A program made the position numbers and the translations under genes. A stretch of DNA of 6,725 nucleotides from a virus (lineage: Duplodnaviria; Heunggongvirae; Uroviricota; Caudoviricetes), in IMG/VR virus record IMGVR_UViG_2548876853_000015. One strand, given 5' to 3'. The notes beneath the pieces were generated by a model that made no database searches, was not told the DNA's origin, and saw only the letters and a program-made list of their open reading frames with translations. Each line of letters opens with the position of its first letter. The stretch's first letter is position 1. Positions 1-3,850 of the stretch are shown piece after piece.

Positions 1-188
1 AGGCACCAGTAACTGAGAGAGTTGCGCGAATCAGTGGAAAAGCGGGCAGAGAAAATACAGGGAGCATCCGGAAGCTGAGAACGTGCCTCATCTTCTGTCG
101 GTGCAATAACGAAGTGATAGTGACGTTTCTGGCAGGAATAGAAGCGCCAGATGAATTCAGGATGAGTTGGGGTAGGGACAGTAGCCAT
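1..188 (-). CDS. Hypothetical protein, N-terminal part only (ORF continues past the left edge); lies downstream of a C1-operator-like promoter and a long structured leader
   Basis: Minus-strand ATG at 188-186 preceded by a strong SD (AAAGGAGG, 8-nt spacer); frame stays open to position 1 (about 62 codons, MATVPTPTHPEFIWRFYSCQKRHYHF...). Absent from the ORF track only because no stop lies inside the window. No family recognised. Confidence 0.5.
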   Translation of the reverse strand, partial: MATVPTPTHPEFIWRFYSCQKRHYHFVIAPTEDEARSQLPDAPCIFSARFSTDSRNSLSYWC

Positions 189-373
189 AATGGCAGCCTC
201 CTTTGACTAAGTTAAGGAGCTACCGCGTGAGGTCTCAATCTCAATGGCGGTAGCACTGACTGGGTTGAGACTACCGGCGTCAAAGGGAACCGGCCTGCCT
301 TTCGGCAGCCCAGCCAGCACTACCATTGATTTCGGAGCTAAACGCTACGTATGGCTGTGCGATGGCATGACAC

Positions 374-395
374 AAAAAAAGACGCTTTCGGCGTC
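374..395 (-). terminator. Rho-independent terminator-like hairpin on the minus strand (GACGC-CGAAA-GCGTC followed by T7)
   Basis: Plus 381-395 gacgctttcggcgtc forms a 5-bp GC-rich stem with a 5-nt loop; plus 374-380 is an A7 run, giving a U7 tract on the minus-strand RNA directly 3' of the stem. It sits about 150 nt downstream of the pacB stop and about 100 nt downstream of the predicted promoter. Confidence 0.5.
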
Positions 396-501
396 TGTGT
401 CGCCTTTGACATTATCCGGGGTCTCAATCCCGGCACCCGTTTTAATGAGGTGCCTGATAAGCATAAACCGAAAATGCCTCAAGGCGCAAGAGGTCAGGTT
501 C

Positions 502-544
502 AATGTAACATCGGTAGTTAAAAAACACAATTTATTAGAGCAAA
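502..544 (-). promoter_or_regulatory. Candidate sigma70 promoter overlapped by a P1 C1-repressor operator-like 17-mer, immediately 3' of pacB
   Basis: Minus strand 544..528 reads TTTGCTCTAATAAATTG, matching the recalled P1 C1 operator consensus ATTGCTCTAATAAATTT at 15 of 17 positions. A -35 TTGTGT (530..525), 17-nt spacer and -10 TACATT (507..502) follow on the same strand. Confidence 0.5.
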
Positions 545-547
545 TAT

Positions 548-2032
548 TCATTCATTAAGCCATGCCAGAGCTTCATCAACCTGCGCTTCGTCTTCGACGC
601 TAAGCACTTCATCCTGGGGAACATAATCCGCCAGCATAGCGAAACAATATGTATCCCAATGGTCTGGTGAGTGCAGGTTGAGTTTTTTCTTCATATCCTC
701 CTTACTCATCACCTTCCATTGACCTGCGGAGTTAATCCCTACAGGGATTTTCGACGCTTCCTCAATAGTTTCATTACCCTTATCCAGTCTCATACGACCA
801 GATTTTACGGCCTCTGCGGCTTGAACGTTGGCATAAGCACGTTTATCAAAGTACAGGCTCTTATCTTCACGGCTATGCATCTTTTTACCCCAGCGTATGC
901 GCTGTACGGTAATACCATAATACTCGTACATCAGATCCGCCGTTGCTTTACCCAGGCCATCGCCGTCTATCGCTATGGTGATATTTGGGAATCGCTCAGG
1001 ATTACATTCTGCGAAAATTTTGGCGGCAAGCTGCGTTTCTGTAACGTCTGTGTATTCCAGCATTCGATAGTTGATTACACGGCGTTTATTTCGCTGGCCG
1101 GACACCATCATGATATTGATAACGGACTTATCCCGTCCCGTACCACCAGCAACGTCCACACATGCAAGCCAGCCCCATCCTTTTGCAATCTTGACTTTCC
1201 GCCGCGTTGCACGTTCAACCTCATCACGTCCAAGAAGGAAGCCATCCTGTGATTTAGGGAATAGGCCGCGTACCTTAATCATGTACATAGGGTTATCACG
1301 CCCGCCGTACTCCGCCAGCTTCATTTTGATAAATGCTGGCGTTACCAACGGTGATTCCTCACTGTTAAGCGTGATCGCCGTATAAACGCCATCAGGGTTA
1401 CCAGGACGCTTGGCCAGTTTATGGTGTGTATCGTAGAAATAGCCGCTTGGGCGTGTAGGCTGTGACAGTAATAAGATGCGGTTATCCTGTCCGGTAAGAG
1501 CACCGGTGATGATACCGAAAGCTCTATCACTGACACCGGAGGCTTCATCGATAATATACAGAAGATGATCTGCGTGTTCACCGGCAAGAGCTTCTTCACT
1601 TCCCAGACGAAAGCCCTTCGGTACTACAGTCCATACACCTTTACCAGTAACCTCATAGAAAGCGGTTTCTGTCAGAACAAAATAATCAGCAAGCCATGGA
1701 AAACGGCTGGTGGCAGTAGCCCAGTTTATCTTGATGTACTTGAATATACCGGTCATTACCTGCTGAATTTTGTTCGCAACGATAATGGCGCGGGCACCGG
1801 GATACATGATTATGAACAACATGATCATGATAGAAGTCATGTCTGATTTCCCGGTACCGTGACCAGACGAAACAGATGTCTTGCTACCCTGTTCCTGCAC
1901 AGACTCAATAATCAGATCCTGCTGCCAGGTAGGTGTTTTGCCGAACAAAACATCAGCGGCCGCAATCCAGTCATAACGATATAGCGCCACCAGCTCGCGC
2001 CAACGTGGATCCGTTACGCAACTTCTGGCCAT
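548..2032 (-). CDS. pacB: Terminase large subunit (P1 PacB-type), 494 aa
   Basis: 494-aa ORF with a Walker-A-like ATPase motif (SSGHGTGKS). Start ATG overlaps the pacA stop by one nt (TAATG). Size and position match the recalled P1 PacB (494 aa). Confidence 0.9.
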
Positions 2033-3225
2033 TAATCATCATCCCCGTATAGCTTGCGGGTAACTTCTTCGTCTTCCTCCTCGTCTTCGTCCAGGTCTTG
2101 TTCCAGCCATGGGTCGTTTGATACACCTTCAGTATCAACATCTCCATAACCGCCTGTATCAACGATATCGGCGATTTCTTCCCTACGCTGCTCAATCCAC
2201 AATGCGGCATCGGCGCGGCGGTTGGCGGCCCGTTCTCGCGCAACTTTGTCCAGATCTTCAAGAGAAGGGCCACCGACGGCTGTTTGCCTTTCCTCATCAT
2301 CGGTATTGGTCTTAGGAGCACGCAGATCGGCTTTGATTTGCTCCAGCATCAGGGGCGGAACTTTCCCACCATGCGCCTCGATAAATTCAGCTGCTTCCAG
2401 CACTGACCAGTTATTTTCACGCTTTCGTTCGTATGCCAGCTTAACAATGCCAGCTTGCCCCATAGACAAAGCGTGCTTTTCCGCCTCCCGGCTTTCTTTT
2501 CGATAGTTATTCCGGATGCTGTAAATGGTGTTGATCAGACTGCTTATCTGCGCGGAACAGCTGTTTAGCATGCTCGCGATACGGTATTCAGGCGGAGTGC
2601 CTTCATCATCGTCTTTTTGCTGATCGCGCATTTCCTGCACCAGGCGAATACACGTATCCCTGGCGTTCTCCAGCATAAGGAGATGAGAAAGAGACTTTTC
2701 AAGAAGAGTGGTTTCCAGAACATCGGCCCCGGACCGACGCAACATAGCGCGTGCGGCCTTCCGCGCTTCAACGTTATCTATCAGGTAATCGCCAGCTTCG
2801 AATTCAAAGCGTTCACCATCATCATCCAGGGTGTCGCGTTCCAGACGATCACGCAAGGTCCGGTGGGCGCGGGTGATCACGTCATGATCATCTGAACGAT
2901 CATTTATGCGCTTATTTTGGCGCTTCGCATTCTCGACTGCGGCACTGACAACGGCATTAACTCTCTGTTTTTCCGCTATTTCAGCCGCAATATGATCACC
3001 TGCATGTTGATCATTAGAGTGATCAATGATCATGCTTTTTAGTGGCTTCCTGACTGGCTTATTTGGCTTGCGGCTGTCCGCAGTCCTGGTGTCTTCTTTG
3101 AAGGCACGGAGATAACGACGTGCGGTATTAGGGTTAAGATTAAACTCGGCGGCATACTGTGCGATGGTGTAACCACCATCTCGCGCCAGGCGAGCAAAAT
3201 TCTTCTTGTGATCGTCCCAGGTCAC
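2032..3225 (-). CDS. pacA: Terminase small / pac-recognition subunit (P1 PacA-type), 397 aa, GTG start
   Basis: 397-aa ORF with an N-terminal helix-turn-helix-like segment ([27 protein letters not shown]) and a highly acidic C-terminus. GTG start at 3225 with SD AAGGAAG 5 nt upstream and an in-frame stop immediately upstream. The pac hexamer clusters lie inside its 5' third, as in P1. Confidence 0.88.
2874..3032. other. pac packaging site: two clusters of TGATCA/G hexamers (Dam GATC sites) flanking a roughly 90-bp hexamer-free core
   Basis: Hexamers at 2874-2879, 2885-2890 and 2897-2902 (the last as cgatca, i.e. TGATCG on the other strand), then 2993-2998, 3008-3013, 3020-3025 and 3027-3032. 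This 3 + 4 arrangement over about 160 bp matches the recalled P1 pac site (about 162 bp, seven hexamers). One further cgatca lies at 2846-2851. Confidence 0.75.
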
Positions 3226-3310: not shown

Positions 3311-3763
3311 TCAGATACGTGCGGATGTGGCATTACCGTAATGACGGTGCTGACGGGCCACCTTATTGAAAAGTTGACGCGCCATTACCCAAGGCTGGTG
3401 CTCCCGGCGTTCCTTTTCGTCCTGCGTCATATAGAGTTCGTTCTGGAGTTTTTCATCAAACCGGCGCGGAGCGCGGCTACGGCGAAAGAATTCAGGATTC
3501 AGAGAGTGGATCTGAAATCTACGTGGGCGTGTACTGTCATCAATCAAAACAGACGAATACTTAGACACAGCGATAGCCTTTAAGCGCAGATAAACATCGC
3601 GCTTATCGACATCCAGATGCGGGTATTCCTTTTCAAGAATTGCTGCGAGTTCTTTCGCTGATAGAAGAGATTTAGTGCGGATCATGTAATCCGCAATCTC
3701 GTACGATGTTATTCGTGAGTGATTTATTTCCATGAAGTGGCGTCCCTGCCAGTTAAGTAACAT
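3311..3763 (-). CDS. lpa: Candidate late-promoter activator (P1 Lpa / gene 10-like), 150 aa, basic
   Basis: 150-aa ORF immediately upstream of pacA, the position I recall for P1 lpa. SD GGTGA lies 4 nt before the ATG at 3763. Assignment is by synteny and size, not by a recognised motif; an alternative start exists at 3733 (MEINHSR...). Confidence 0.55.
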   Translation of the reverse strand: MLLNWQGRHFMEINHSRITSYEIADYMIRTKSLLSAKELAAILEKEYPHLDVDKRDVYLRLKAIAVSKYSSVLIDDSTRPRRFQIHSLNPEFFRRSRAPRRFDEKLQNELYMTQDEKERREHQPWVMARQLFNKVARQHRHYGNATSARI

Positions 3764-3808: not shown

Positions 3809-3850
3809 ATAATACCCTCGATTAAAGAAATAGCAACACATTAGAGCAAT
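3809..3850 (-). promoter_or_regulatory. Candidate sigma70 promoter for lpa with an adjacent C1-operator-like element
   Basis: Minus strand: ATTGCTCTAAT (3850..3840) matches the first 11 positions of the recalled C1 operator consensus (13 of 17 over the full 17-mer). Then -35 TTGCTA (3836..3831), 16-nt spacer, -10 TATTAT (3814..3809). Consistent with lpa being C1-controlled in P1. Confidence 0.45.

Follow-up and report, generated by a model that had tools for sequence, protein, structure and literature searches.

The region that follows pacB in a 6,725-nucleotide stretch of tailed-phage DNA (IMG/VR record IMGVR_UViG_2548876853_000015; the whole stretch is called the window below) is very probably the regulatory leader of a second immI-type antirepressor operon, in which a C4 antisense RNA, an icd-like open reading frame (ORF) and an antirepressor gene (ant) are placed in the gap between pacB and c1. 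By analogy with known systems, the leader is most likely a short RNA of the IsrK kind that combines an attenuator with a mimic of the C4 target. An earlier note on this DNA, drawn up from the letters alone, had proposed that a short structured RNA under the control of the repressor C1 ends at an intrinsic terminator here, and homology lends support to the proposal, both through a full-length isrK match and through collinearity with the Op51/P51a region of P1. The downstream C4 RNA, its a2/b2 targets, the icd-like ORF and the antirepressor were overlooked at the time, and it is this context that gives the RNA its meaning. The parts of the module all lie on the minus strand, and positions are those of the window unless another sequence is named.

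The leader was recognized through an Rfam search, in which the isrK family (RF01394) matched at 453..375 over model positions 1-77 of 77, with 60.2 bits (gathering threshold 50) and E = 2.2e-11, giving an RNA of ~79 nucleotides (nt) with three hairpins. The two stem-loops that had been described before can be placed, from the Rfam alignment and the ViennaRNA fold, at 453..433 (stem-loop 1 or hp1; 6 bp with a 9-nt loop) and at 432..417 (stem-loop 2 or hp2), the latter carrying box a1, TTGAGAC at 427..421, in its loop. Both stem-loops have undergone compensatory changes across 11 leaders (RNAalifold on a MAFFT alignment). Box b1, GTCAAAGG at 410..403, is single-stranded and ends 6 nt ahead of the terminator stem. 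A second Rfam family, c4-a1b1 (RF03163), matched at 466..413 with 22.3 bits, under its gathering threshold of 46.7; kinship with c4-a1b1 therefore rests on the isrK model together with the complementarity described below, and filing the element under RF03163 was rejected on this score.

The third hairpin of the isrK model is the intrinsic terminator, found in a terminator scan as AGACGC-CGAAA-GCGTCT at 396..380 with a run of seven T at 380..374, which is the GC stem plus U7 that the earlier note had pointed out. It consists of a 6-bp stem (4 G-C pairs), a 5-nt loop and the U7 tract, and a 33-nt segment ending in the hairpin folds with a free energy of about -10 kcal/mol. Terminator calls in the window were not enriched as a whole (9 found against 5.2 +/- 2.0 expected), so support is taken instead from conservation: a hairpin and U-run are found at the matching position in 12 of 12 homologous leaders when each is folded separately, with stem sequences that differ between P1-type and IsrK-type leaders. 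Per-sequence folds and the Rfam alignments were used for this purpose because RNAalifold lost the terminator, the P1-type and IsrK-type versions having been mis-registered by gaps. Since a plus-strand transcript would carry no U tract after the hairpin, the terminator is expected to act on one strand only.

Downstream of the terminator, with a start 44 nt away, lies a full-length match to the C4 antisense RNA (RF01695) at 330..243, with 75.4 bits (gathering threshold 45) and a fold z of -5.3; its boxes are b', CCTTTGAC at 286..279, and a', GTCTCAA at 271..265. The C4 target region follows at 238..197 and comprises a2 (TTGAGAC, 238..232) and b2 (GTCAAAGG, 207..200), the latter overlapping the Shine-Dalgarno sequence AGGAGG at 202..197. 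This precedes the icd-like ORF, whose ATG is at 189..187 and whose 5' part occupies 189..1 before the ORF continues beyond the window; it matches the NCBIfam model NF033153 (phage_ICD_like) with 49.8 bits (cut-off 25). In Escherichia phage RCS47 the icd-like ORF encodes 73 amino acids (aa) and its stop overlaps the start of the antirepressor gene (ATGA), which encodes a protein of 371 aa with ORF6N and KilAC antirepressor domains. In P1 and P7, pairing of C4 with a2/b2 blocks translation of icd and thereby expression of ant (PMC8198154, PMC12197685).

The strongest link between leader and C4 is found in their boxes. In the window, a1 is complementary to a' of the adjacent C4 at 7 of 7 positions and b1 to b' at 8 of 8, or 15 of 15 together, and a1 and a2, like b1 and b2, are identical strings. 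The comparison was extended to 11 further loci, namely a second locus in RCS47 (the canonical immI, placed by sequence match to the P7 locus), JL22, 673R5, two loci in D6, P1, P7, two Stx2-type phages, an Stx1 phage and a Salmonella phage. P1 and nine other loci show an isrK or c4-a1b1 match followed 23-44 nt later by a C4 match. With the window included, the 12 loci fall into nine a'/b' specificity classes, and in every one of them the changes in a1, a2, b1 and b2 go together. In cognate leader-C4 pairs, 14-15 of 15 positions are Watson-Crick matches, compared with a mean of 9.4 of 15 and a maximum of 13 for the 72 non-cognate combinations. In their boxes, the window and JL22/D6 are set apart solely by two bases that have changed together in b1, b' and b2. 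Box complementarity was counted directly here, in place of RNAduplex energy matrices, which were noisy because GC-rich stems cross-pair.

The genomic setting shows that this is an additional module. Positions 1-1200 of the window are 99.1% identical to RCS47, and positions 150-700 are 100% identical to several E. coli plasmids. Identity to P1 is only 88%, and the similarity ends exactly at the stop codon (550..548) of pacB, the gene for the terminase large subunit (2032..548), 3 nt ahead of the operator described below. From the end of pacB to the end of the convergent c1 gene there are 24 bp in P1; the same interval spans ~1.7 kb in RCS47 and closes with an annotated 'ant', followed by convergent c1. 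Judged by these alignments, the window is an RCS47-like relative of P1 and not P1 itself, with an insert of about 1.7 kb where P1 has its pacB/c1 gap, and the loss of similarity at the pacB stop, together with the contrast between 1.7 kb and 24 bp, places the element outside the P1 sequence proper. It is, on the same comparison, the start of an insertion present in a subset of P1-like phage-plasmids; the insertion in RCS47 is on record in PMC6906374, and 271 plasmids in PLSDB contain both the pacB junction and the leader. RCS47 also retains a canonical immI operon of the P7 type at 52.7-54.5 kb, which makes the module in the window an extra copy. Unlike the immI of P1 and P7, it maps between pacB and c1 and does not match the canonical position between sim and kilA/repL. 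By its sequence content the insert is a second immI-type module, with an operator, two promoters, leader, C4 antisense RNA, icd-like ORF and antirepressor. The earlier note had hinted that such an RNA might be new at this position in P1, a suggestion which does not hold: P1 carries the same element within its immI operon, and many lambdoid prophages have it too. Its absence from the 3' end of pacB in P1 is due to a pacB/c1 gap of just 24 bp.

Transcription of the module would start from two promoter-like sites, the first of which is overlapped by a C1 operator. The operator, TTTGCTCTAATAAATTG at 544..528, is the equivalent of Oc4/Op51 and agrees with the P1 C1 operator consensus at 15 of 17 positions, as had been noted before, although it reaches 14 nt past the end (530) then given to the region. 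It is the sole site with three or fewer mismatches in the 6.7-kb window; 0.04 such sites per window are expected by chance, and any match was found in 8 of 200 shuffles. It is identical to OrepL/Op53 at 16 of 17 positions, differing only at position 17, which is also variable among the annotated P1/P7 operators. Ten annotated operators of P1 and P7 score 10-16 of 17, and the site in the window equals or beats six of them. The P1 consensus can be applied here because the C1 of RCS47, encoded beside the module, is 281/283 identical (99%) to that of P1. Sharing 3 nt with the 3' end of the operator is the -35 hexamer TTGTGT (530..525) of the upstream promoter (530..502, the P51a/P2c4 equivalent), which has a 17-nt spacer and an extended -10, TGTTACATT at 510..502. 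The start near 495 that had been proposed is borne out as a prediction (G495/A494): the promoter is weak, with 7 of 12 consensus positions, but promoter and operator are collinear, position by position, with the annotated P2c4/P51a and Oc4/Op51 of P1, where P2c4 reads TTGTAT, 17 nt, TGcTATCTT in the GenBank annotation. Going by the P1 GenBank annotation and the papers of the Schuster laboratory, P51a is controlled by C1 and P51b is constitutive. Homology to Op51/P51a suggests that C1 would control the upstream promoter of the window in the same way. Elsewhere in the window, a weaker operator-like site, ATTGCTCTAATGTGTTG at 3834-3850 on the minus strand (4 mismatches), stands ~70-90 nt upstream of the lpa ORF (3763..3311) and overlaps a promoter-like TTGCTA, 16 nt, TATTAT at 3836..3809; we take it to be, probably, the counterpart of Op86, the C1-controlled lpa operator of P1.

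The second promoter-like site, equivalent to P51b/P1c4, is found at 489..460, with a -35 of TTGCGC (489..484), an 18-nt spacer and a -10 of TATGCT (465..460). Its predicted start, at about G453, is the first base of the isrK model. In 11 loci, aligned over the 110 nt upstream of the leader, a -35/-10 pair always ends 6-7 nt ahead of the model's first base; the pair reads TTGACC, 17 nt, TATAGT in P1, where it is the annotated P51b, and TTGACT or TTGATT with TATATT or TACACT in the lambdoid phages. This positional conservation with P51b suggests that the second promoter, which is outside the operator, is probably constitutive and active in lysogens. With a second promoter-like pair the leader can be made in two lengths, predicted at ~121 nt from the upstream promoter and ~79 nt from the second; the longer one agrees with the ~100-120 nt proposed in the earlier note, which missed the shorter. 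Similarity to phage D6 begins at 497, at the predicted start of the upstream promoter, and D6 has no operator there. The C1-controlled promoter therefore seems to be a P1-specific addition ahead of an RNA module that is more widely distributed.

Only transcripts from the upstream promoter would include the 42-nt 5' extension at 495..454, which in the predicted fold pairs back onto the 3' half of hp2 and onto b1. From the short to the long form, the predicted unpaired probability falls from 0.62 to 0.13 for b1 and from 0.99 to 0.46 for a1. Compared with 300 dinucleotide shuffles of the extension, the gain in interaction has a z of -2.2 in the window, -3.5 in P1, -4.7 in P7 and -1.0 in 673R5, so that pairing beats the shuffles in the window and also in P1 and P7, whose extensions are unrelated, though not clearly in 673R5, with the caveat that the extension must also encode the second promoter. 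These folding predictions raise a speculative idea, one we consider improbable, that the choice of promoter gates the activity of the RNA, with the ~79-nt form exposing a1/b1 and the ~121-nt form masking them. If this were true, the state of the repressor would set which leader isoform is made and not just the amount. Taken jointly with such gating, and held with the same considerable doubt, is the picture of a phage-plasmid with two RNA locks that differ in specificity (a P7-type and a D6-type C4), each on its own antirepressor and both tied to a single repressor.

The closest relatives of the module can be found among several known systems, beginning with the immI leaders of P1 and P7. The parts of P1 immI in GenBank are Oc4/Op51 over the -35 of P2c4/P51a, P1c4/P51b 40 nt downstream, a1, b1, c4, a2, b2, icd and ant1/2. 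In order and spacing these parts match those of the window, from the operator through to b2 over the Shine-Dalgarno sequence of icd; among them are two hairpins, the second of which holds a1 in its loop, then b1, a hairpin with U-run, and C4, and the icd stop likewise overlaps the start of ant. The a and b boxes differ, being TTGAGAC / GTCAAAGG in the window, TTGACAG / GTTAGTG in P1 and TTAGCAG / GATTGTG in P7. The terminator of the window is the stronger one, with its 6-bp stem, 5-nt loop and U7, compared with a 12-nt loop and U5 in the P1/P7 leaders, and the antirepressor (in RCS47) is an ORF6N+KilAC protein where P1/P7 immI has Ant1/Ant2. P1's own leader scores 51 bits with c4-a1b1 and a sub-threshold 35 bits with isrK, the latter match taking in a hairpin and U5 ahead of c4, whereas the window is recognized by isrK instead; c4-a1b1 scores for P1, P7 and the D6_b locus are 51-56 bits. 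The c4-a1b1 family (Weinberg et al. 2010, PMC2864571) covers the same pair of hairpins with a1, upstream of C4 RNAs in phages of gamma-proteobacteria, but its model is centred on P1-type sequences and stops short of b1 and the terminator.

The IsrK RNA of the Salmonella prophage Gifsy-1 is a second relative. Like the leader in the window, it matches the isrK model at full length and over gathering, has the same three hairpins and U tail, is followed directly by a C4-type RNA (the STnc1160/orf45 region) and then by an antirepressor gene, and is complementary to the downstream RNA through the loop of hairpin 2. It differs in that the window adds the P1 C1 operator and upstream promoter as well as an icd-like ORF between C4 and antirepressor, and in that Gifsy-1 is an integrated lambdoid prophage whereas the window belongs to a plasmid-prophage. 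For IsrK, an Hfq-binding RNA, both a terminated short form and a read-through form have been demonstrated (PMC4825925). The read-through RNA is translationally inactive through pairing of the middle of IsrK with a downstream segment (Hershko-Shalev et al., PMC4825925), and short IsrK supplied in trans raises translation of anrP, or the downstream ORF and antirepressor, 114-171-fold (PMC4825925). STnc1160, an ~80-nt RNA complementary to IsrK, is processed from the read-through transcript (PMC4825925). The compensatory pairs G28/C162 and G31/C159 of IsrK map to a1 and a' within a 3-nt offset, as placed on the closest Salmonella homologue, phage 118970_sal3, and orf45 starts at an AUG within the 5' stem of C4. 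C4 is not mentioned anywhere in PMC4825925, and in a review from 2025 IsrK and c4 have separate entries with no link between them. The sequence matches suggest that the a1/b1 sites of P1/P7 immI and the Salmonella small RNA IsrK, though treated in separate literatures, describe the same element.

The third relative, orf83/orf82 of phage D6 (an icd-like gene and an anti-repressor), is 90.6% identical from position 497 of the window onward and has the same a1, a', a2, terminator and spacer. Its b boxes read GCAAAAGG / CCTTTTGC compared with GTCAAAGG / CCTTTGAC in the window, and D6 has no C1 operator or upstream promoter, its sequence diverging upstream of 497. A further C4-like match in D6 (L004 2616-2695; 40.2 bits, under the gathering threshold of 45) is located ~430 nt upstream of the isrK-like leader and overlaps the start of orf86. 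D6 also has a separate P1-like c4-a1b1/C4/icd/antirepressor module (L010), and may thus carry two or three C4-type RNAs. In several GenBank phage records, long coding sequences labelled 'antirepressor' or hypothetical run across isrK-like and C4 RNAs (L007 977-1999, L008 851-1993, L011 2510-2716); these are probably start-codon or gene-call errors arising from unannotated RNAs.

Two further observations concern the C4 region. A 39-aa ORF at 207-326 on the minus strand exactly covers the C4 RNA and the a2/b2 sites, and is labelled 'ash family protein' by the NCBI pipeline in many plasmids. Its AUG is part of an AUGG that is conserved within the C4 5' stem, and it stops at TAG 209..207 inside b2, 17 nt ahead of the icd ATG; its position matches that of 'orf45', which is reported in the IsrK paper to be translated, and in 673R5 the frame continues into icd to form a 119-aa ORF. 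It is either a real peptide or an annotation shadow of the conserved RNA. RCS47 also has two C4 systems whose specificities differ; that of the canonical immI is P7-type (a' CTGCTAA, b' TCACAATC). Cross-complementarity between the two is low, except for a 7 of 8 match between the P7-type b' and GATTGAGA, a string that spans the a1 box and likewise the a2 box in the second module (421-428 and 232-239); this could be chance or limited cross-talk.

A mechanism can be put together from these parts, with sequence, structure, complementarity, co-variation and synteny as its observed basis, and with transcript ends, C1 binding, termination frequency and the effect in trans deduced. In a lysogen, C1 bound at 544..528 would shut the upstream promoter, as Op51/P51a suggests, while the second, weaker promoter starting near 453 would escape the operator and probably fire, a view that fits the expression of IsrK in every RNA-seq condition tested in Salmonella lysogens. 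Going by IsrK, most transcripts would end at the hairpin and U7 (396..374) to give the ~79- or ~121-nt RNA, and a fraction would read through, providing both the C4 precursor and the icd/ant mRNA. The a'/b' boxes of C4 would then pair with a2/b2 and, as in P1, block translation of icd, because b2 overlaps its Shine-Dalgarno sequence, and of ant as well through coupling. Since the leader holds exact copies of the target, a1 and b1, the terminated RNA could relieve repression by pairing either with C4 itself or with the C4 part of the read-through RNA. The balance of leader RNA to C4 would in this way set the threshold for antirepressor synthesis, and more leader would be made once the C1-controlled promoter is released from repression; through the upstream promoter, C1 would add a repressor-controlled input.

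Several points weigh against this reading. The c4-a1b1 model stays below threshold, and both promoters are weak by consensus; a generic sigma-70 consensus scan of the window listed neither of them, a miss that is not counted as absence because the mapped P51a of P1 is equally distant from consensus. The predicted partial masking of b1 and a1 in the 121-nt form complicates the notion that de-repression yields more decoy. Even in P1 itself the role of a1/b1 is a putative one, the GenBank record labelling them 'putative' target sites. The authors of the IsrK study invoke orf45 and alternative mRNA structures, not a C4 sponge, and the mechanism may differ accordingly (PMC4825925).

Other explanations of the same region must be weighed. 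The leader might act in cis only, as a C4-responsive attenuator: C4 would pair with a1/b1 on the nascent RNA and alter termination, giving feedback on C4, icd and ant, with the short RNA as a by-product. We rate this as a minority option of some substance, as b1 ends so close ahead of the terminator stem that pairing could affect hairpin formation, co-variation of a1/b1 with a'/b' would be expected equally, and the IsrK authors raised the possibility themselves by analogy with the CI RNA of P4 (PMC4825925). However, short IsrK acts in trans to raise downstream translation >100-fold, and a constitutive C4-equivalent RNA failed to blunt the IsrK effect (PMC4825925). The cis and trans models are mutually compatible. 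Attenuation of read-through had also been offered in the earlier note as an alternative role, and homology to IsrK upholds it.

The companion suggestion, that the terminator serves pacAB, fares less well. In its full form, the hairpin and U7 would chiefly end late pacA-pacB transcription and insulate the antirepressor module and c1, with the promoter- and operator-like sequences being incidental. It is true that this is the first terminator-like site past pacB on the minus strand, ~150 nt after the stop, and that it would inevitably act on transcripts leaving pacB, but the hairpin and U-run are kept in 12 homologous leaders, most of them without a terminase gene upstream, and the operator is far above chance and collinear with Op51 of P1. 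This explanation is accordingly thought unlikely, and the termination of pacAB transcripts is better regarded as a side effect. Least probable by a wide measure is a small protein, encoded by a 68-aa minus-strand ORF at 551..345 that has an ATG start, spans the region and is annotated in one GenBank record as 'hypothetical protein gp120' of phage JL22. It has no Pfam or NCBIfam match, its frame in 673R5 diverges fully past residue 42 and has a different length, its 5' part is absent from D6, and it crosses the operator, two promoters, two conserved RNA hairpins and the terminator. The ORF was rejected as protein-coding for want of a family match and of a frame conserved in 673R5, as was a 104-aa ORF on the plus strand (244..558), with no Pfam/NCBIfam match and a frame likewise not conserved in 673R5.

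The remainder of the window follows the minus-strand gene order, in the direction of transcription, humD, phd, doc, pdcA, pdcB, lpa, pacA (3225..2032) and pacB. Within pacA there are two clusters, each of four TGATCA/TGATCG hexamers, at 2846-2902 and 2993-3032, and the window as a whole has 26 matches to these hexamers compared with 8.7 +/- 3.6 expected. From their sequence, the clusters look like a P1-type pac packaging site with Dam-methylatable repeats. Beyond the window, in RCS47 (L001 4823-4870), a GC-rich hairpin, GCCCGG-TTGAT-GCCGGGC, is found between the ant stop and the convergent c1 stop and may be a terminator that separates the convergent ant and c1 transcription units.

The element belongs to curated RNA families and is not a new kind of mechanism. 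The immI type of module has been known since about 1990, and 'isrK' and 'C4' can already be found as neighbouring annotations in GenBank records of Stx phages. What is new here is modest: a copy fronted by a C1 operator in the pacB/c1 gap of at least 271 plasmids, with a distinct specificity, the equation of IsrK with the a1/b1 leader, and a possible isoform effect. It nevertheless gives a testable regulatory role to a 350-bp stretch that is unannotated or mis-annotated, under GenBank labels such as 'hypothetical protein' or 'ash family protein', in at least 271 P1-like plasmids, many of them with resistance genes. If a1/b1 and IsrK are indeed the same element, the long-unexplained a1/b1 sites would gain a candidate function, that of mimicking the C4 target and activating translation. 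A second antirepressor behind its own C4 lock, with boxes unlike those of canonical immI, may have consequences for induction, superinfection immunity and heteroimmunity where P1-like plasmids share a cell.

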